Source of the DNA: a virus
Taxonomy: Duplodnaviria > Caudoviricetes
IMG/VR virus record: IMGVR_UViG_3300020050_015887
Coordinates: 20,501 to 84,500 of that record
Reading direction: 5' to 3' (one strand)
Length of the DNA stretch: 64,000 bases
In this document: positions 7,137 through 58,975 of the stretch, one piece after another
Layout of the letters: each line of letters begins with the position of its first letter
Position numbering within the stretch: the first letter of the stretch is position 1
Notes under the pieces: generated by a model
Databases searched by the model: none
Told to the model about the DNA's origin: nothing
The model's input: the letters and a program-made list of their open reading frames with translations, nothing else
Translations under genes and position numbers: made by a program

Positions 7137-8582
7137 ATGACAAATAACAATCAACCTAAAGGAACCGGATTCGTTAACCTTTCCCGGTATTTAGGTGCAA
7201 ATCAAAATAATAAATTGGGTAGTGCAGTATCTAACAACGTTTCTGGGCGTGTTGGGGACGTAAAATCTAATTTAGGTCAGTTAAAAAACGACTTTGCTCA
7301 AAGGGCCGGTGAAAATGCTCTTGGAACGCAGTCTAATGTTGAAGCTCGCACAAAAGCTTTAGAGTCTATTATGGGTGGAAACACCGCGTTAACCCCACAA
7401 ACAGAACAAGATTTTGCTAAATTTAGAACTGGTGCTTATGCTGGTCCTACGGAACTAGATGCAACTAAAACTGCAAGCACTGCGGCTAAAGCCGGACAAG
7501 TAGAACGTGACGTTAAAGGATTAGGAACTGTTGAAGGTCGTGGAAATTTATTACGACAAACAGTTGGTAAACCTGGTTACTCACAAGGTCAACAAAAATT
7601 AGACACGTTGTTATTAGGTCAACAATCTAATGAATTAAATAGTGCTAGACGTGATGCTACAGGCTTAGGTCGTAGTGTAGAAGAAGCTCGTCAAGGTGCG
7701 CAACAAATTGGACAAACACAAATTGCTAAAGCTCAACAATTTGGACGAGACACTCAAGGTGCTTTAAAAACAAATACTGGATCTATTGTTAGTGATTTAG
7801 AAGCCAGAGCCGCTCAAGCTAACCAACAACGTCCTGAAATTTACAATTCATTAGTTAATGCTATTCAACAAGGTGATATTACTCCAGAACAAGCACAGAT
7901 GTTGGGATTAGAAGAAGGTACACAAACATATGGTTTAAATTTTGATCCTTTTGTATCACAAAGTCAAATTGCAGCAGATAAAAGTAATATTGCTGGAGAA
8001 ATAGACAAAGCTAAATTATCTGCGTTGGCTAAATTGTCTGGACAAACTGGCGTTGACGCAATTAACACCGCAGCAGAAGCTTATCGCGGACCTTTAAATG
8101 TTAGAAAAGAAGATTTATTAAAAGGTATTAATGATAGAAAATCTGCTTATGAAGATTTATTAAATAGAGGCGTAGATATTCTTGGACAAGGTGGAGTTGC
8201 CGGAGCACTTAAATCAAATCAAAGACAAAACGGAGAAAGCACAGAAGATTATCTTAATAGAATTATTCAAAACCGTGGTAATGTTGGTGATACATATAAA
8301 AACAGTTCTGGTCAAACCCAACAATTAAATTCATTAAATAATTATTTTAAATCAATACAATCTAATATTGATAATGCTTCAAAAACTAGAGAAAAAGCTC
8401 AAGCTGATTTTGCTCGTTTAGGAAATAATTTTGCAACATCTAAAGGTAATCAAATTTTATATGGTCAACAAGCATTAGACCATATTTTACAAGGTTCATT
8501 ACAACAAGAACAATCATTGAAAAATGAACTAAATCAATTAAAAGCACCTTTAGACCAAGCTTATAATAAGGTATTAAAATAA
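7137..8582 (+). CDS. Putative internal virion (ejection) protein
   Basis: 481 aa, Q/A/G/N-rich helical composition; follows tail genes. Confidence 0.55.
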   Translation: MTNNNQPKGTGFVNLSRYLGANQNNKLGSAVSNNVSGRVGDVKSNLGQLKNDFAQRAGENALGTQSNVEARTKALESIMGGNTALTPQTEQDFAKFRTGAYAGPTELDATKTASTAAKAGQVERDVKGLGTVEGRGNLLRQTVGKPGYSQGQQKLDTLLLGQQSNELNSARRDATGLGRSVEEARQGAQQIGQTQIAKAQQFGRDTQGALKTNTGSIVSDLEARAAQANQQRPEIYNSLVNAIQQGDITPEQAQMLGLEEGTQTYGLNFDPFVSQSQIAADKSNIAGEIDKAKLSALAKLSGQTGVDAINTAAEAYRGPLNVRKEDLLKGINDRKSAYEDLLNRGVDILGQGGVAGALKSNQRQNGESTEDYLNRIIQNRGNVGDTYKNSSGQTQQLNSLNNYFKSIQSNIDNASKTREKAQADFARLGNNFATSKGNQILYGQQALDHILQGSLQQEQSLKNELNQLKAPLDQAYNKVLK

Positions 8583-9551: not shown

Positions 9552-11027
9552 ATGAATTTTTATCAAGACATGATTGCAAAATATCCAGATCTTAAAGAAC
9601 AAGTTGACCGTTTAAAAAGATCTAAAGAAGCTGAAATATTAGAACCGACTTCTATGCGTGACATGGAAGATCCAACTGGAAAATTTGCTACTCAATTATC
9701 AGATTCAGAAATGCCTAGCACTTTTGTTGTTGCACCAGAAAGCACACCAAAACGTCCAGATTCAGGGTTTTTACCTGAACAAGCTGGTCCTTCTCGTCCA
9801 AGCCCTATTGCTGATTTTTTAGGAAATAGAGAACAAATTGATTTAAAACCTAGTGAGTTTGCTGGTGCTGGTGACAAAGCTTTAGCACAATTACCACCTA
9901 AACAAGACATTGTTTCTTTAGCAAAGGAAATGGCTTTATCAAAAAAACTACCAGAAGAATCATTTACAGCTAAGCCTGCTATGATGGTTCCACCTTTGAT
10001 TGAACCAAAGGCACAACAACTAGAATTAGACACCAATGACACTTTAGGTACTGTTGAAAATTTAAGAGAAGCTCAAGATAAAGCAAATGAAATTCGCAGT
10101 ATGGCTGGTTATGCACAAGCTTTTGACCGTATTGGTTCTGGTATTGCCGGAAGAAAACCAACAGATCCACAACATTTTAAAGACATGGAAAAAGATGCAG
10201 CATTGCCTGAACAACAATTAGAGGCATTGGTACAACAAGAAAAGAAAGACCCTAAGAGTGGTATTTCTAAAGGGTTTACATCTTATCTTAAACAATTTGG
10301 GGTTGATATTAAGGGCGGAATTTCTGCCGAAGTTGCAGCAACTATGCTTCCTACTATTTATAAGCAATATGAAGACAAGATTAAACTTGCCCATGATGAA
10401 AAAATTAAGGGAATGGAAATTGCTTCTAAAGAAAAAATTGAATCTGAAAAGGGCAATCTTAAAAAATCTATTGCTCAAATTGTTGCAGATAATAAAAAGG
10501 GCGCAAAGGAAAACGAATTTACTAAAACTCGTGAAAGAGAAACAGCTAAGCGATTAACTAAGTGGTCACTTGGTGAAAACAAGATGATTAGATCCGATAT
10601 TGATAAGTTAAAAGAAGTTGAAGCTAAACTAGAAGCAGCAGTTAAACAAGGTAAGGGTAATTATACAGGTCCAATTAAGGGTAATATCCCAGGACAATCT
10701 ATTTTTAATCCTGCCGGTCAAGAATTAGCTAACAGTGTTGGTTCAGTTACTCAAAAGAACTTACGTGAAATTTTGGGCGGCCAGTTTGCACAAAAAGAAG
10801 GTGAGCAACTATTAAAACGTGCATACGAGCCAGGTAAAGATGAAAAATATAACCTAGAACGTATTCGTCAACTAAGAACCGCAATGGAACAAGCCGCCGA
10901 TGCTAAAGACGAACAACTTGCTTACCTAGAAGAACATGAAGGTAACATGAAAGGATTTCGTACTGTGGCCAAAGAAAAAACCATGGACGACGAATTCAAA
11001 GATTTAGGATTTGAAGCTGATGAATAA
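9552..11027 (+). CDS. Putative internal virion protein
   Basis: ATG 9552 preferred over the track start 9444, which overlaps the upstream gene; helical. Confidence 0.5.
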   Translation: MNFYQDMIAKYPDLKEQVDRLKRSKEAEILEPTSMRDMEDPTGKFATQLSDSEMPSTFVVAPESTPKRPDSGFLPEQAGPSRPSPIADFLGNREQIDLKPSEFAGAGDKALAQLPPKQDIVSLAKEMALSKKLPEESFTAKPAMMVPPLIEPKAQQLELDTNDTLGTVENLREAQDKANEIRSMAGYAQAFDRIGSGIAGRKPTDPQHFKDMEKDAALPEQQLEALVQQEKKDPKSGISKGFTSYLKQFGVDIKGGISAEVAATMLPTIYKQYEDKIKLAHDEKIKGMEIASKEKIESEKGNLKKSIAQIVADNKKGAKENEFTKTRERETAKRLTKWSLGENKMIRSDIDKLKEVEAKLEAAVKQGKGNYTGPIKGNIPGQSIFNPAGQELANSVGSVTQKNLREILGGQFAQKEGEQLLKRAYEPGKDEKYNLERIRQLRTAMEQAADAKDEQLAYLEEHEGNMKGFRTVAKEKTMDDEFKDLGFEADE

Positions 11028-12915
11028 AGTAAGAGTAAAATTACCTTCCGGTAAAACAGGAAGTATTCCTGAAGAAAGTTTACCAGATGCCCTTAAAAAG
11101 GGTGCTGTTCGTCTTGATGAGAATACTCCCGTTGGTTCTTCTACAATGGCAATGCCACAAGAAGACTATACAACAATGGATAGCATTAAAGACGGTGCAG
11201 TTGATGCTAGCAGAGGATTAGCTCAAGGTATGACCATGGGTTTTTCTGATGAGCTTACTGCCGGAATGCGTGCTTTATTAAATAAGAAAAAAGAACAAAG
11301 TTTAAAGGATGCTTATAATGCAAATTTACAAGAAGAACGCACCGCTCTACACGAAAGCAGTGAACGTTCTCCTTGGGTTTATGGTGCAAGTGATATTGCT
11401 GGAAGCGTATTGCCTGCAATTGCTTCTGGTGGTGCTTCTTTATTGCCATTGGCAGGTAAAGAAAGTTTACGACAAGTTTTAAAACGTGGCGGAGCTAAAG
11501 CCTTAACCAGTGAATTAGGCACTATTGCTGCCGGAAGTGGTGCAGCAGGTGGTGTAGAAGCTTTGGGACGCTCAGAAGGTACCACAAACGACGCTATAGC
11601 TAAAGATGTTATGGGTGGTATTGCATTGGGTGCTGTTGCTGGTCCTACGTTTAAAGCTGGAAGCGATTTAATGGGTGTTGGAGTTCAACAGGCTAAAGGA
11701 TTGCTTGGCGGCGGAGATCCTACAAAACAAGCTCCATTCGTAGCTCAAGTAGGTAAAGCTTTTCAACAAGGTAAAGAAGGTAAAAATATTAGTGAAGCCT
11801 TAATTGACCAAGAACGTATTGGTGCTGAACAAATTGGACACGTAAAAGATATTGCTGGTCGTTTTAGAACTGCTGAAGACAAAATTGCTCAAGAAGGTAA
11901 AGACATGCTAGAAATGGCTAGTGTTGATAAAAAGAATTTTATTAATATTAGACCTGATGTTGACGAAATTGCCGCAAGCGTAGAAGGGTTAGTACGTTCT
12001 CAACCTCATTTGGGTTCATTAAAAGAAATTAAACAATTAAGAGATAGACTTAGTAAAGTATATAGCGTTGTAAGTCCTCAAGAAGCTGTTAATTTACAGA
12101 AAGACATTGCTAAAATTGCGTCTAGATCAACCAATCAAGAAGTTAAAGCTGTTGCTAATGAACTAGCCGATAGACTTGAAAAACAAGTTGATGAAGTTGT
12201 TCCTGGTTTAAAACAAACCAACCAAGCATTAAATGATTTTAAATATGCTGGTAGTGAAACTATCACTTCCAAAGGACTACCAAGAGAAATGCGTGCTAAT
12301 GTTGGTCCAGGCGTTACAGAAGAAAAACTAGGCGAATCAATTACCGACTTATTATCCAATTTACGTACACCTGGTAATAGCAAAGCTGACAGTGTTAGAA
12401 CCTTTGCTGAATTAAAGCGTCAATTAGAAATTTATAATAATAAATATCCCGGTAAATTAGAAAAACTAGGTATTGATATTGATGATTTAGAAAATGCAAT
12501 TGTTGATAAAGCGGATGAATTTGCTATTACACGTCAAGCATTGGGTTCTGAACCTAGAGGCGCTGGACTTGCACGTTCTGCAACTACTGGTTTAATTGGT
12601 AGCTTAGCTGCTGCCGGTAGAGGTAAGATTGTTGGCGCCGCTAACATTGCTGGTGGTATCACTAAAAAAGTGGCTGAGAGTGCTCCAGCTAAAACAAGTC
12701 AGTTTTTATACCAAAAGAGTGGCGACCAGTTGAGAGGCTTAGCAGATAAACTAATGAATTCTAATAACTCACAAGCACAATATGTTGCTCAATCATTGGT
12801 TAAAGCTCTAGATGATAAAAACATGATTGCAAAAAATGCTGCGTTATTTAATATTTTACAAAACCCCGAACTAAGAGACATGATTAAAGATGACTTGGGA
12901 TTATTAGAAGAATAA
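11020..12915 (+). CDS. Putative large internal virion (ejection) protein
   Basis: G/A-rich amphipathic segments (GLAQGMTMGFSDEL); ATG 11020. Confidence 0.55.
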   Translation: MNKVRVKLPSGKTGSIPEESLPDALKKGAVRLDENTPVGSSTMAMPQEDYTTMDSIKDGAVDASRGLAQGMTMGFSDELTAGMRALLNKKKEQSLKDAYNANLQEERTALHESSERSPWVYGASDIAGSVLPAIASGGASLLPLAGKESLRQVLKRGGAKALTSELGTIAAGSGAAGGVEALGRSEGTTNDAIAKDVMGGIALGAVAGPTFKAGSDLMGVGVQQAKGLLGGGDPTKQAPFVAQVGKAFQQGKEGKNISEALIDQERIGAEQIGHVKDIAGRFRTAEDKIAQEGKDMLEMASVDKKNFINIRPDVDEIAASVEGLVRSQPHLGSLKEIKQLRDRLSKVYSVVSPQEAVNLQKDIAKIASRSTNQEVKAVANELADRLEKQVDEVVPGLKQTNQALNDFKYAGSETITSKGLPREMRANVGPGVTEEKLGESITDLLSNLRTPGNSKADSVRTFAELKRQLEIYNNKYPGKLEKLGIDIDDLENAIVDKADEFAITRQALGSEPRGAGLARSATTGLIGSLAAAGRGKIVGAANIAGGITKKVAESAPAKTSQFLYQKSGDQLRGLADKLMNSNNSQAQYVAQSLVKALDDKNMIAKNAALFNILQNPELRDMIKDDLGLLEE

Positions 12916-21220: not shown

Positions 21221-23353
21221 TTACTCCTTACCGTAAGCCGTAGCTTCTACGGCACTGTTGTTGGACACTACTACATATTTACAATTCTGTACAAATTCAT
21301 CGATATTACGGGCGTTTAAATAAGTCATACCGCTACGTAATCCACCCTCAAAGTAGTTCATTAAATTTTCAACACTACCAGACACGGGAATTGTATAAGA
21401 TTCACCCTCTGGCGCTCTAAAACTAGCAGTTTTGTTTTGCACTTCATATGAAGACTGAGAAGCACTTCCCCTGTAAATCTTAGATAAAGGTGACATATCA
21501 GCAATGGGTGCAGCACTCTCAATCGTGCCAGCCATTAAACGACCCATAAAAACCCCTTTAACGCCTAATGCCAGGGCTTTTGATAAATCTCCAGGGGTAG
21601 ACATACCCCCGTCTTGAATGAGCGTATAACCCGTTCTAGCACAATCTAAAATACAAGAAACCGAAGGGGTTCCTACCCCGGCAACAATGCGAGTTTTGCA
21701 CGCGCTATTATGAACAATTGCATTATTGGCAATAAAACTGTGAGTAGGACAATCTACTTCAATGTCATATGTTTCAACAATTTCATCGATTGTTGTATAA
21801 TTGTTAATTCTGACAATTTGGTAATTCTCTGTTAATTGAGAATTCCAGGTTTTAAACGTTTTAGCACGAAAAGAAGGTTTAATATTTGCTAATGTAGCAT
21901 TTTTTAAACCACCAACTGTTGGTTTTCTATAAGACTGACTTGGAAAATAACCATATAATAAATAATTTATAATTGCAAACAATTCTATTAACTGTGGTGA
22001 TGTATTTGTTAATACTAATTTACCGTCGTCCTCGTGACCATCACTGTCAATTAAACCATCAAAAATTCCACGTAAATAGTTATTATTAATAACTAAATAA
22101 TTATTTGGTAAATGTTTTTCTTGTTTTTTACCAAAATTAATCATTAATCTTGCCAATGGTAAACAGTTAGCATTAACAACAATAACGTTATTGATCTTTT
22201 TTGTGGTTACGTTAATGTTAAATACTTCTTTTAATGCGGTAGTTAATTTATAAACAATGTCCGTTTCGGTTTTATTAAAATACCAAGAAACTTTTCCGCG
22301 AACAGAATTTTTATGAATATTAACTCTTGAGTGACCATCACCCAAAAATGTTCCAAAAATATATCCCAAATTATACGAAGATTTAATTTCATTATTATAT
22401 TCTTGAGCTTCAAAAGATTTTGAACGAATTGAAAATTCTTTTAAATTAATTAAAAAGTTTTCTTTTAAATCGAATTTAATATTTTTTGGCATTAACAATG
22501 TGCTTTTTTGGGTTTGATCAATTCTTTGCCATTTATATTTAGAATCCCCACTTTTGGTTGATTTATCTAAAACATTACCCAAACCCACGTCGTTAATATT
22601 TTTTATTGTAGAATAATCACCGATCCAATGTCGATGATCGGGCGTAACGATCGTTTCTTTGTAAAAATTATTGTTTTTATATTTAACTACCGATCTGAAC
22701 CCGGAGTTTTTTGTTCCAATAACCTTTACCGATTGGCCATTTTTATTAATGACAAAATCACCAACTTTTACATCTTCAATATTTTTATAGGTAGCATTTG
22801 ACATTAACACTCGCGTTCCAGCAGCAAAACAACCAGGCCCTACACCAATCTTCCAAGCCGTTGGAATTTTACCACTTTTTTCAACAAACGTGTTAATTTG
22901 TCCACTATTATCAAAATTACCAACAATAATATCTACGTCAAATAACATTTTTAGTGCTTTAAATTGGTTTAACACCTTCTCTTGAGCGCCGTTGGCCACG
23001 TCAATTACCAAAGTTTCAGCGCCAGCGTGAACTAAAGCCTCTGCGCGTTCAATCTCTGCGGTTCCTACACCTACAGACACCCAAGGCTTAACGTTATTAT
23101 AAATACCTTCTTTAAAAAGAACAATATTTTGGTCAATAGTACAAAAACGATGTACCGTAGCAATACCACCTTGTTTAATAACAGCAGCAGATAATTGCGG
23201 CGAATAAACACTATCCATATTAGAAGCGATAATAGGTACTTGTAATGTTGTGTTGCCAATTTTAACACTAGTGTCTACGTCGGAACGTGATGAAATAGTT
23301 GTAAAATTTGCTGGCACTAGGGAAATATCTTTAAATGTTAAATTTTTATTCAT
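21221..23353 (-). CDS. guaC: GMP reductase / IMPDH-family enzyme (CBS-less, about 335 aa after splicing), intein-containing
   Basis: PIIASNMD; IDVANG (GuaC-like); GVGPG|SACKTR catalytic loop; DGG; YRGSAS; LRSGMTY. IMPDH not excluded. Confidence 0.7.
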   Translation of the reverse strand: MNKNLTFKDISLVPANFTTISSRSDVDTSVKIGNTTLQVPIIASNMDSVYSPQLSAAVIKQGGIATVHRFCTIDQNIVLFKEGIYNNVKPWVSVGVGTAEIERAEALVHAGAETLVIDVANGAQEKVLNQFKALKMLFDVDIIVGNFDNSGQINTFVEKSGKIPTAWKIGVGPGCFAAGTRVLMSNATYKNIEDVKVGDFVINKNGQSVKVIGTKNSGFRSVVKYKNNNFYKETIVTPDHRHWIGDYSTIKNINDVGLGNVLDKSTKSGDSKYKWQRIDQTQKSTLLMPKNIKFDLKENFLINLKEFSIRSKSFEAQEYNNEIKSSYNLGYIFGTFLGDGHSRVNIHKNSVRGKVSWYFNKTETDIVYKLTTALKEVFNINVTTKKINNVIVVNANCLPLARLMINFGKKQEKHLPNNYLVINNNYLRGIFDGLIDSDGHEDDGKLVLTNTSPQLIELFAIINYLLYGYFPSQSYRKPTVGGLKNATLANIKPSFRAKTFKTWNSQLTENYQIVRINNYTTIDEIVETYDIEVDCPTHSFIANNAIVHNSACKTRIVAGVGTPSVSCILDCARTGYTLIQDGGMSTPGDLSKALALGVKGVFMGRLMAGTIESAAPIADMSPLSKIYRGSASQSSYEVQNKTASFRAPEGESYTIPVSGSVENLMNYFEGGLRSGMTYLNARNIDEFVQNCKYVVVSNNSAVEATAYGKE
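21707..22831 (-). mobile_element. Intein with LAGLIDADG homing endonuclease (375 aa)
   Basis: Starts CFAAGTRV, ends IVHN followed by Ser; YIFGTFLGDG and LRGIFDGLIDSDG motifs. Confidence 0.93.
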
Positions 23354-55743: not shown

Positions 55744-55759
55744 GGCAACACTCATACCA
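55744..55759 (-). promoter_or_regulatory. sigma54-type -24/-12 motif
   Basis: TGGTAT-GAGTG-TTGCC. Confidence 0.55.
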
Positions 55760-55776
55760 ATTCAATTAACCTATCA

Positions 55777-55789
55777 TATCAAATACTTG
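55777..55789 (+). promoter_or_regulatory. IHF-consensus site
   Basis: TATCAA-ATAC-TTG (WATCAANNNNTTR), about -45 to -55 from the adjacent sigma54 motif. Confidence 0.35.
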
Positions 55790-55983
55790 CCCTAATCTAA
55801 CAAATAACTTAACATCGAGCATGTAACGTAAGTGAAATGCGAGATAACTCAAGTATATTAAGCAATTATCAGAGTAGTTTGTTTTATAAATAGCTCTAGG
55901 ATAGATCCGTCTTCACGATCCTTCAGAATACCATAATTTTTGTATTGTTGTCAAGTAATTTATTTTATCAATTACTAGAATAT

Positions 55984-55999
55984 TGGTATAGATCTTGCA
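55984..55999 (+). promoter_or_regulatory. sigma54-type -24/-12 motif
   Basis: TGGTAT-AGATC-TTGCA. Confidence 0.55.
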
Positions 56000-56165
56000 A
56001 AGAGAATATACAAAGAGATCTTAAAGAAATAAAGATCTAAATAAAACAACAAATCTTCAGTATAGCATATTTATTAATAATAAGTCAAGTTAATATTTCT
56101 TAACTAATGGGTTAATAAAATAGGACAACATGTTTAATATATCTTAAACAAGCTGCCCTATTATT

Positions 56166-56181
56166 TGGCACAAGATTTGCA
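56166..56181 (+). promoter_or_regulatory. sigma54-type -24/-12 motif (full consensus)
   Basis: TGGCAC-AAGAT-TTGCA. Confidence 0.65.
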
Positions 56182-56500
56182 GAGAGGGATAATTTTACGG
56201 GCTATGGATATACAGGTATAATAGCATTAATACGCAAACCTTGTTCCTTACACTTACGCCTAATGCTACTCATTCCTTTTAGGGTTGAGGTTACTTTACC
56301 AGTAGCAACATACCACTTACCGTCACGCTGAATCATCTTACTATAATGTACAATATACATTTATCCTACCTCATCATCCGTTAAAGACTTAATAAACTTT
56401 TCAGCTTTATCTTTAGTGTTAAAGGTATCTAATACAATACCTTTATGTAACACTTGGAATATATACCCTACTTGGGTGTATACAGGTCTAATGCTATACA

Positions 56501-56734
56501 TTAATCTACCCATTCTTTATCAATTTCGATTGTTTGAGTTTGATTAGACAAACTGTCAATAGCATCCTCATCTAAATACTTGGCACCATTCTTGCAAAAC
56601 GATGCGACGTATTCGCCTTCTGTATTATGATATACAGTGCAACTAGGCTCTTCTGCTAAGGCTGCAACACTCATTAACATGCTGATAAACATTGCAACTA
56701 GGGTAAAGGTTAATAACTTTTCTTCTCTATTCAT
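56501..56734 (-). CDS. Small secreted acidic protein
   Basis: Signal peptide ending AALA; GAGGA SD. Confidence 0.55.
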   Translation of the reverse strand: MNREEKLLTFTLVAMFISMLMSVAALAEEPSCTVYHNTEGEYVASFCKNGAKYLDEDAIDSLSNQTQTIEIDKEWVD

Positions 56735-56823
56735 ATGATCCTCTATATCTATATTATAACAATCTAAGGATTAAAGCAACACCAATCACCAACAATAAAT
56801 AATAATAGTTGTTCATGCTTGCC

Positions 56824-57204
56824 CTATAGTGTGATAAAGTACAGCCCGTCAACCTTGCTGTAGTTCTTCTCGGGTTGTTTATCCGTTGGGGTCCACTTAC
56901 CAACAGACTTAATAGATCCGTCTTTAAATACCAATTCAGCATGTCCGTCTGAATGTACTCTTAGATAGCACTCTTGATCAAACGTATCTGCCAATAGCTT
57001 GATCACGCTATTATAAGTGTTCTCTGCAACAATATACAGAGAGACTTCAGTTGATCCCTCATAGTTGCCCTCTACTAATTTAAAAGGCAGCTTATGCTTG
57101 TTAAGCAGCTGAATTAGTTCTTCAGTGCGGTGAAAATTCTCTCGCACACTAAGGGTGCTAAGTTCTGCACTTAATACAAAAGCTTGTTTTGTCACATTGA
57201 ACAT
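56824..57204 (-). CDS. SAM lyase (T3 SAMase-like) anti-restriction protein
   Basis: VLSAELS.L....N..R; GNYEGSTE.S; LADTFDQECYL; AELV; VGKW match the T3 SAMase motif order as recalled. Confidence 0.75.
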   Translation of the reverse strand: MFNVTKQAFVLSAELSTLSVRENFHRTEELIQLLNKHKLPFKLVEGNYEGSTEVSLYIVAENTYNSVIKLLADTFDQECYLRVHSDGHAELVFKDGSIKSVGKWTPTDKQPEKNYSKVDGLYFITL

Positions 57205-57314
57205 TGTTAACTCCTATAGCTATAATAGCACATGCTATATTAATTGCAACTATTATTTAAACTCTCTATAATGCCCTACAAACGTTCTTTGAATGTTAAC
57301 CTATAGGATGCTAT

Positions 57315-57575
57315 TCAATCCCATTGGATCTCGAAATAAGAGCCATCCTCAAGGCTACCATAGCCGATATAATGTTTACCGTCTGATACAGCCTTGCAAA
57401 CGTCGCTATATACCTTAGCACCATCTACTAGTGTTGTACATAATACCTTGAACCCATCATAGTCGTATAAGTCTGAATGCTCGCATCCCTCTACATCCGT
57501 ATACGCATGTACGAATGTCTTAAATTCCACTAGGCTATAATCTACTCCGAATACTTTATTATCTAGGATTTGCAT
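57315..57575 (-). CDS. Acidic hypothetical early protein
   Basis: GAGG SD; TTGCTA-17-TATATT promoter at 57595-57623. Confidence 0.55.
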   Translation of the reverse strand: MQILDNKVFGVDYSLVEFKTFVHAYTDVEGCEHSDLYDYDGFKVLCTTLVDGAKVYSDVCKAVSDGKHYIGYGSLEDGSYFEIQWD

Positions 57576-57603
57576 TGAATACCTCTCAATTATTAATATA
57601 CCA

Positions 57604-57729
57604 CTACTTGCTTAGCTTAGCAACTACATTCTCAGCCTGTTGCTTTGTAGCGTAAGGACCTGCTACCACTAAGTATGTTCTGCTATTCTGAACGATCCAC
57701 CCTACTTTAGATTGAATGATGTTGTACAT
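57604..57729 (-). CDS. 41-aa early protein
   Basis: AAGGAG SD before ATG 57729; GPYATKQQAE. Confidence 0.55.
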   Translation of the reverse strand: MYNIIQSKVGWIVQNSRTYLVVAGPYATKQQAENVVAKLSK

Positions 57730-57753
57730 ATATTCTCCTTTGATATATATTAA

Positions 57754-57769
57754 TGCATTCGGTGTGCCA
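57754..57769 (-). promoter_or_regulatory. sigma54-type motif (near consensus)
   Basis: TGGCAC-ACCGA-ATGCA. Confidence 0.45.
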
Positions 57770-57797
57770 ATGTATCTTAGCCTCAAAGTATAGCCCC

Positions 57798-57813
57798 TGC
57801 AATATTCGTGCCT
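57798..57813 (-). promoter_or_regulatory. sigma54-type motif
   Basis: AGGCAC-GAATA-TTGCA. Confidence 0.5.
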
Positions 57814-57935
57814 GTATAGAATGTGTACAGATCTTAGGGCTTGACAATGTATGTGTTGGATTCTATTGGAGATTGTGTGGTGTGTAAGGATTGGTCGGGT
57901 GTATAGGAGATGGGGGGGTACCCATATTTAAAAGT

Positions 57936-57951
57936 TGGCATAGACCTTGCC
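57936..57951 (+). promoter_or_regulatory. sigma54-type motif upstream of the HNH gene
   Basis: TGGCAT-AGACC-TTGCC. Confidence 0.55.
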
Positions 57952-58012
57952 TCTGCGACCCATGCACCAAATATATTTTTAACATACCGTCATAAATTTA
58001 ACATTTAACTAT

Positions 58013-58975
58013 ATGAAAGAAAAAAACCTCCACTCATTAGTTGAAATTTGTCTTGAATGCGGAACTCAATGTGCCCTACATTCTTACACTACGGTATTTA
58101 GTAGTGCTTTACCAAGTATTCAAAAATCAATTCAAGATAAAAAAAAGAAACAGTTAGATTTAATAAAACGTAATGAAACATTAAGATTAAAACAATTTAA
58201 TAAAAAGAAACAACTAGTTAATAATATTGTATATGATAAAATTAAATGTCATTATTGTAATGAAATAAAATTAAGACTGACAGTTAAATCGAGGGATTAC
58301 ATTGATGAAACAGGTAGAGATTGGGTAGGAAAAAAATGTCCTAGTTGTAGAAGTATTGAATATCAAAAAAGAAAAGAAAATAGATTCAAAAATAAAAATT
58401 GTAACTATTGTAATAGTAACTTTACTGGTTTATACAGTAAAAAATATTGTAATGTTGGATGTCGTCGTTCAAATGAAAATATAAAAAGAACTATTAGAAA
58501 ATGTATTACTTGTCAAACCCTATTAGGTAATACAACCCGTTTAAAATGCTCTGCCTGCTATGTTCCTAAAAAAACATATCCTAGTAAGTCTAAGCCACCA
58601 AAAGCTGCGTATAACCAAACGTGCGTTAAATGCGGGGTTGTTTTTTTGGTCGCCCGGAAAAAGAAGTATTGCTCTCAAAAATGTAATAAAAAAGCAAACA
58701 CTAATCCAGCATTACATAAGATGTATAAAAAGTTACGTAAGAGAGCGGTAAAAAAAGCTAAACCTAAGTGGTGTAAATGGAAAGAAATTGTTGAGGTTTA
58801 TGTTAATTGTCCAGAAGGAATGGAAGTAGATCACATTCATCCATTAAATCATCCTGACGTATGTGGGCTTCATGTCCCTTGGAATTTACAATATTTATCT
58901 AAAGAAGATAATAATAAGAAATCTAATAGTTTTGACGGTACGTATGAAAATTTAGGTTGGAAAAAGAAATCATGA
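58013..58975 (+). CDS. HNH endonuclease with multiple Zn-finger motifs
   Basis: Seven CxxC and two CxxxC; VDHIHPL..CGLHVPWNLQYL...NNKKSN. Confidence 0.85.
   Translation: MKEKNLHSLVEICLECGTQCALHSYTTVFSSALPSIQKSIQDKKKKQLDLIKRNETLRLKQFNKKKQLVNNIVYDKIKCHYCNEIKLRLTVKSRDYIDETGRDWVGKKCPSCRSIEYQKRKENRFKNKNCNYCNSNFTGLYSKKYCNVGCRRSNENIKRTIRKCITCQTLLGNTTRLKCSACYVPKKTYPSKSKPPKAAYNQTCVKCGVVFLVARKKKYCSQKCNKKANTNPALHKMYKKLRKRAVKKAKPKWCKWKEIVEVYVNCPEGMEVDHIHPLNHPDVCGLHVPWNLQYLSKEDNNKKSNSFDGTYENLGWKKKS

Follow-up and report, generated by a model that had tools for sequence, protein, structure and literature searches.

Transcription of phage genomes is usually ascribed to host sigma-70, to phage sigma factors or to phage RNA polymerases, and use of host sigma-54 has been published for very few phages. 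In 2008 Ceyssens et al. reportedly found that the development of Pseudomonas aeruginosa phage YuA depends on host sigma-54. Two papers describe a reported dependence of YuA on this factor and one mapped sigma-54-like promoter, with experimental support from a promoter trap and one capped-5′-end start site (PMC5053324, PMC10914365); a 2016 paper calls sigma-54 use by phages rare and gives YuA as the precedent. Here we describe a cluster of sites of the sigma-54 (RpoN) −24/−12 type in a 64-kb stretch of phage DNA (the window), bases 20501–84500 of the 84.5-kb IMG/VR phage contig IMGVR_UViG_3300020050_015887. The sites surround a small early accessory cassette that includes a gene for S-adenosylmethionine (SAM) lyase, and they are conserved across metagenomic relatives. 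This phage resembles YuA in having no RNA polymerase of its own, in carrying sigma-54-like beside sigma-70-like promoters and in its predicted reliance on a host factor. It differs in that it is unrelated to YuA, most of its sites are antisense, and it is known from sequence alone.

The closest bacterial counterparts are RpoN promoters (glnAp2 and pspA, for example) and the set defined by chromatin immunoprecipitation (ChIP) in Salmonella (Samuels et al. 2013, PMC3844500), which have in common with the phage sites the pattern TGGCAY-N5-TTGCW, in which GG and GC are invariant and lie ten bases apart. Of the phage sites, three also stand at a normal promoter distance from a start codon. In contrast to the bacterial promoters, the phage sites lie in a genome of the virulent phage type that has neither an activator gene nor a recognisable upstream activator-binding site (UAS), and they form a convergent arrangement around a 1.5-kb cassette, with tandem sites 43–44 nt apart. 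Positions within or opposed to genes are familiar from Salmonella, E. coli and Vibrio cholerae, where antisense RNA or transcriptional interference has been proposed; 58% of the sigma-54 sites in Salmonella fall inside genes, 16 of the sites are antisense, and half of the intragenic or antisense sites tested (4/8) fired with a constitutive activator (PMC3844500). Those chromosomal sites are scattered, whereas several of the phage sites are concentrated at the 3′ flank of the cassette and keep their orientation among relatives.

A preliminary description of this DNA had listed six sigma-54 motifs and estimated them to be far above chance. Direct reading confirmed all six, with their coordinates and strands, and added two more. 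One of these, at 56581 (+), is a perfect TGGCAC-N5-TTGCA, and the other, at 57954 (−), is weak. For the strict pattern TGGYAY-N5-TTGC, shuffling predicts 0.57 matches in the window; there are 6, a number that none of 100 shuffles reached, and five of the six fall within the 2.2 kb at 55745–57950, where 0.02 would be expected (Poisson probability ~2e-11). The looser GGYAY-N5-WTGC has 11 matches in the window against 2.5 expected, 7 of them inside the same interval. These regular-expression statistics are independent of the position weight matrix (PWM) used for scoring, which we made ourselves from rough frequencies. By PWM scan the whole 84.5-kb genome holds 7 sites of at least 15 bits, 5 of which lie at 56166–57936; 10.7 kb of sequence from relatives holds 21, compared with about 2 in the remaining 82 kb of the phage. 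Seven window sites show GG and GC exactly 10 bp apart within a TGGCAC-N5-TTGCW-type element, five of them scoring at least 15 bits, and the consensus of about 20 sites from the window and relatives, TGGCAY-N5-TTGCA, agrees with the ChIP-defined Salmonella sites (PMC3844500).

The motif belongs to the cassette rather than serving as a general promoter of the phage, since the other divergent regions (55.0–55.2, 61.1 and 63.1–63.2 kb) carry no sigma-54-like site; that at 55.0–55.2 kb bears sigma-70-like promoters instead. Reading the TTGGCA within the motif as a sigma-70 −35 box was rejected: a usable −10 at 17 nt is found only for 56166 and perhaps 57754, which leaves the set unexplained. The top-scoring sigma-54-like site of the genome lies elsewhere, at 8110–8125 of G000, 12.4 kb before the start of the window (TGGCACGATTTTTGCT, 19.9 bits), within and sense to a gene of the plus-strand structural block.

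The motifs had been described as two divergent clusters in a non-coding zone. The sites stand, but the zone is only partly non-coding, as 56202–57730 contains seven minus-strand genes; the layout is better put as a 1.5-kb coding cassette that has sites on either flank and one in its interior. S1 (57798–57813, −; AGGCACGAATATTGCA; 17.4 bits) is the upstream member of a tandem pair, sense to the cassette. S2 (57754–57769, −; TGGCACACCGAATGCA) follows 44 nt downstream, directly ahead of the first cassette gene; its GC precedes the ATG at 57729 by 25 nt, and the predicted start would leave a leader of ~16 nt with an AGGAG Shine-Dalgarno sequence. On the other strand, S3 (57936–57951, +; TGGCATAGACCTTGCC) lies 62 nt upstream of a divergent HNH endonuclease gene. 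S1, S2 and S3 are thus upstream of and co-oriented with a gene, at a promoter-like distance from its start codon.

The preliminary description also noted motifs that point at no nearby gene, and there are several such sites. S4 (56581–56596, +), a perfect TGGCACCATTCTTGCA, lies inside and antisense to the cassette gene for a 77-amino-acid (aa) protein with a signal peptide (minus-strand open reading frame (ORF) 56501–56734). S5 (56166–56181, +), a perfect TGGCACAAGATTTGCA, is found between the last cassette stop codon and the terminator, directed back into the cassette, and S6 (55984–55999, +; TGGTATAGATCTTGCA) between two leftward sigma-70-like promoters, P1 and P2, to which it is antisense. 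S4, S5 and S6 are all directed into the cassette in antisense, with no ORF downstream. Two weak sites complete the set. S7 (55744–55759, −; TGGTATGAGTGTTGCC) is not conserved and probably non-functional, and S8 (57954–57969, −; TGGTGCATGGGTCGCA; 10.3 bits), which faces S3 across a 2-nt gap, is doubtful. Around S6 there is also a cluster of GATC sequences, 5 in 135 nt (55904–56038), with three AGATCT palindromes within 50 nt; a further AGATCT occurs at 57829, just upstream of S1.

We compared the sites with those of metagenomic relatives found by protein look-ups: the short contigs L013, L021, L022, L023 and L024, which carry the same cassette at 71–85% nucleotide identity, and L025, which has a homologue of the 77-aa gene only. 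All conservation statistics refer to these relatives, which are non-independent samples. Sites occur at the same places in five metagenomic relatives, with the −24 (TGGCAY) and −12 (TTGCA) elements kept and the 5-nt spacer varying. Across orthologous non-coding sites, identical positions amount to 138/143 (96.5%) in the core, 54/65 (83%) in the spacer and 618/672 (92%) in the flanks, and the difference between core and spacer is significant (p = 0.0015), as would be predicted if selection acts on the elements and not on the spacer. Of the five changes in the core, four leave the consensus intact or bring the site closer to it (C/T at positions 4 and 6; ATGCA to TTGCA). The remaining one, TTGCA to GTGCA, depends on a local alignment of L024 that is doubtful. 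In the non-coding zone of the six genomes, the 12 sites that score at least 13 bits all have the same orientation.

Individual sites follow this pattern to different degrees. S1 orthologues in L013 (AGGCAT...), L022 and L023 keep both elements and alter the spacer (GAATA in the window, AATTA in L022, AATTC in L023). S2 is identical in L013 and L023, and L022 has TGGCATCCCTATTGCA, in which the spacer is altered and the −12 element improved (ACCGA-ATGCA in the window, CCCTA-TTGCA in L022). In four genomes the spacing of the tandem pair is 43–44 nt and its distance to the ATG 25–29 nt. S3 has remained intact where an HNH-like gene is present (L015 and L023) and has decayed to TGGCATAGTCCTCGCG in L013, from which the gene is absent; S8 is lost in L013 and is not conserved. 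The 16-mer of S4 is identical in L021, L022 and L025 despite differing flanks, reads CGGCAC at its −24 element in L013, and is absent from L023 and L024. S5 is the same in L023 and L024 and differs in its spacer in L021 (AAGAT in the window, AAAAA in L021). S6 is the same in L013 and is TGGCATAGATATTGCA in L021 and L024, nearer the consensus, with TGGCAT in place of the TGGTAT of the window. Additional antisense sites are found in L022, which has two just beyond the terminator, and in L021 and L024, each of which has one. S7 has lost its GG and GC in L013 and L024, though an adjacent 26-nt block is fully conserved.

That block (55765–55790; AAGTATTTGATATGATAGGTTAATTG on the minus strand) is 100% identical in L013, L022 and L024, with diverged surroundings, and contains a match to the consensus for integration host factor (IHF) at 55777–55789 (+), the only one in the region. 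An IHF site between enhancer and core promoter is an optional feature of sigma-54 promoters, and the preliminary description had noted this match upstream of the first motif. It is present, but the window as a whole holds 9 such matches against 10.3 expected, which is chance frequency, and the motif with which it was paired, at 55744, is not conserved.

It is probable, in our judgement, that these sites are bound by sigma-54. We place about half of our confidence in the more specific reading that they are sites for the host sigma-54 holoenzyme, under selection, that work as enhancer-dependent promoters needing a host activator. The tandem S1/S2 would then drive the early accessory cassette, including the SAM lyase, and S3 the HNH endonuclease gene, while the rightward S4–S6, with the extra sites of the relatives, would fire into the cassette and against P1 and P2; antisense RNA or transcriptional interference from S4–S6 could shut the cassette off. 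Expression of the cassette would be gated by the physiological or stress state of the host through a host enhancer-binding ATPase. Consistent with this, no conserved sigma-70-like promoter lies upstream of the cassette across the relatives, though strong ones exist elsewhere in the phage, and the phage has no RNA polymerase, sigma factor or enhancer-binding protein.

The last statement rests on searches of the phage proteins and genome. The earlier finding that the window encodes no enhancer-binding AAA+ activator, its AAA+ protein being MoxR-like and not an enhancer-binding protein, can be extended to the 84.5-kb genome, which has no PF00158 match and no GAFTGA in any of six frames. Firing would therefore need a host enhancer-binding ATPase. 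Searches for sigma-54 domains, a T7-type RNA polymerase and sigma-70 regions 2 and 4 in the phage (PF04552, PF04963, PF00940, PF04542, PF04545) were all negative. A 13.8-bit PF04552 (Sigma54_DBD) hit, considered as a possible phage sigma-54, proved to be the helix-turn-helix of a NUMOD4-HNH endonuclease.

Several observations weigh against enhancer-dependent promoters. The presence of rpoN in the host is assumed. No UAS emerged, in that repeat and relative comparisons found no shared upstream dyad. A slow, activator-dependent promoter would be odd for anti-restriction genes that are needed at once, and over half of the conserved sites are directed at no gene. S5, the best intergenic site, is deleted in L013 and L022; other antisense sites lie nearby in both. 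Core and flank differ only at p = 0.07, the flanking sequence also being well conserved, and the non-independence of the relatives applies throughout. Finally, G001, the only IMG/VR relative found, has neither cassette homologues nor a sigma-54-type cluster, with zero sites of at least 15 bits anywhere in the PWM scan; G001 yields no footprint, and we do not take it as evidence against function.

The sites might instead bind sigma-54 or its holoenzyme and mostly not initiate. The resulting complexes would surround the cassette and the sigma-70 promoters with roadblocks or insulators, or would together form a sponge for scarce host sigma-54 during phage replication, which would blunt the host responses that depend on this factor. 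The preliminary description had proposed such roadblocks and decoys alongside host-state-sensing promoters. It is well established that sigma-54 holoenzyme needs no activator to form stable closed complexes, and binding of this kind would suit a phage with no activator gene found and with most sites directed at no gene. S3 and S8 face each other across 2 nt, so that at most one of them can fire. L027 (IMGVR_UViG_3300025082_000191), a phage contig of 45% G+C that is unrelated, packs seven sigma-54-like sites of 16–20 bits into 300 bp (10835–11147), with three plus-strand sites 43–44 nt apart, the same-strand spacing seen for S1/S2, interleaved with minus-strand sites as overlapping face-to-face pairs around TTGCAGCGCTGCAA. 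We nevertheless favour promoter activity over passive binding, because orientation is conserved, S1/S2 and S3 are spaced from start codons as promoters should be, and loss of the HNH gene is accompanied by decay of S3. A uniform orientation in the non-coding zone of six genomes is not something a pure sponge would need, and titration by only 5–7 sites per genome would be weak without a high copy number. Host-state-sensing promoters thus fit best among the three proposed roles, and binding without firing, whether as decoy or as roadblock, ranks below them as a possible but unlikely account.

Elements of both accounts could be combined. The convergent sites that bracket the cassette might act as a switch operated by a stress-activated enhancer-binding protein of the host, on through the sense pair and off through the antisense set, while replicating arrays of sites soak up host sigma-54 and so weaken sigma-54-dependent stress and repair responses. 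We regard this as doubtful. If true, it would amount to a regulatory and counter-defence device made of DNA sites alone, common to unrelated phages with a 43–44 nt pitch. For the promoter reading itself, conserved sites around an anti-restriction cassette offer a testable link from a host signalling ATPase to counter-defence expression.

Equally doubtful is that the motif is an asymmetric operator recognised by a different DNA-binding protein, encoded by the phage or by the host, such as an early-gene repressor or a replication-origin protein, and that its likeness to sigma-54 sites is coincidental. Conservation alone cannot name the binding protein, sites in both orientations around promoters are operator-like, an AT-rich non-coding zone with a GATC/AGATCT cluster and duplicated promoters resembles an origin, and G001 is without sites. 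A coincidental match by another protein is nonetheless unlikely, because eleven specified positions and the exact 5-nt spacing fit the sigma-54 consensus and the ChIP-defined Salmonella sites. The C/T variation at positions 4 and 6 is that of bona fide sigma-54 sites, the same motif recurs in unrelated phages, and no candidate regulator was found adjoining the sites.

That the motifs have no function, and are a chance or compositional by-product shared through common descent, is very improbable: the relatives are close and their flanks largely identical, and in an unbiased dyad count over the non-coding parts of the window the top dyad, TTGG-N8-TTGC, is borderline (8/100 shuffles equal the top count), but the Poisson probability of the cluster is minute, the spacer diverges more than the core, and new sites arise independently in relatives, always in the same orientation.

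The cassette itself (56202–57729, −) consists, from the ORF list, of seven small, packed genes, one of them uncertain. Their order is a 41-aa gene (57604–57729), an 86-aa gene, the SAM lyase, a possible membrane peptide, and genes for proteins of 77, 50 and 52 aa; the same order was called in L013, L021, L022 and L023. The SAM lyase (56824–57204, −) matches PF23780 (S-AdoMet lyase) at 60 bits against a cut-off of 28. The tiny ORF at 56754–56819 is the possible, and uncertain, membrane peptide, and the 77-aa protein, with its signal peptide, is predicted to be secreted. Beyond S1–S3, the HNH homing-endonuclease-like gene (58013–58975, +) matches phrog_1271 (E 3.8e-9). It is polymorphic, being present in the window, in L015 (shorter, 214 aa) and in L023 and absent in L013, where at 380–480 the preceding minus-strand gene abuts the cassette promoter region. 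The cassette ends at a hairpin terminator (56119–56162) that is T-rich on both sides. In L013 and L022 a different hairpin with a T-run stands at this position, the function kept and the sequence swapped.

Past the terminator, P1 (56059–56088, −; TTGACT-N18-TATACT) and P2 (55925–55954, −; TTGACA-N18-TATTCT) are strong leftward sigma-70-like promoters, each with an extended −10 TG. P2 is a duplicate of P1: the copies, 134 nt apart, both fit TTGACW-N18-TGnTATWCT and are followed by CTGAAG. The −35 and −10 of P1 are kept in L013, L021, L022 and L024, and P2 is kept in L013 and L022. Perfectly conserved there, the two are the best-conserved non-coding features of the region in relatives, and they read leftward into ~400 nt without an ORF. 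Their product could be a long leader or a non-coding RNA, or they could provide origin-activating transcription. RNA predicted from P2 showed no excess structure (z = 0.08), and Rfam gave no match at gathering or E-value thresholds.

The source contig is classed as linear, with an estimated completeness of 97% and ~32% G+C. The motifs had been placed near the genome end. This is not supported: where the contig ends is arbitrary, and the site cluster is not near a genome end, because the two ends of the contig adjoin in synteny with G001 and the termini of G001 map to ~12.9–13.2 kb of the window. G001 is 89 kb long, has direct terminal repeats, to which the latter interval corresponds, and shares 53% primase-helicase identity. 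Other searches for relatives gave little: a comparison with 50,697 phage records produced no nucleotide match for the region, an IMG/VR search with the small cassette proteins or a SAM-lyase alignment returned no matches, and a metagenome scan recovered the L023 contig again and nothing else. No further relatives of the 41-aa protein were found. Wastewater, digester and compost sequencing runs showed only fragments of relatives, with small word shares. A JGI contig, L014 (2082–5223), matches the window at 100% identity as far as the −35 box of P2; beyond that point its sequence is unrelated and richer in G+C. The contig is probably an assembly chimera and so uninformative for comparison.

As to the host, portal relatives in metagenome-assembled genomes labelled Flavobacteriaceae and Dolichospermum were judged a weak hint and set aside, since binning follows composition, and the primase-helicase and portal, which have only remote matches to cultured phages, gave none. 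A Bacteroidota or cyanobacterial host is argued against, because Shine-Dalgarno cores are enriched (ahead of 33% of crude gene calls, where 4% would be found at random) and the phage genome has promoters of the TTGACA/TATAAT type. No tRNA genes were found in the 64-kb window. The phage encodes a primase-helicase, a two-part DNA polymerase, an ERF recombinase, a dUTPase, a peptide deformylase, the MoxR-like AAA+ protein with a VWA-metallopeptidase partner, several HNH endonucleases and a GT9 heptosyltransferase, whose neighbours in a GT9 atlas search were mainly viral. At 21221–23353 (−) of the window, an IMPDH/GMP-reductase-like gene is split by an intein with Hint and LAGLIDADG signatures.

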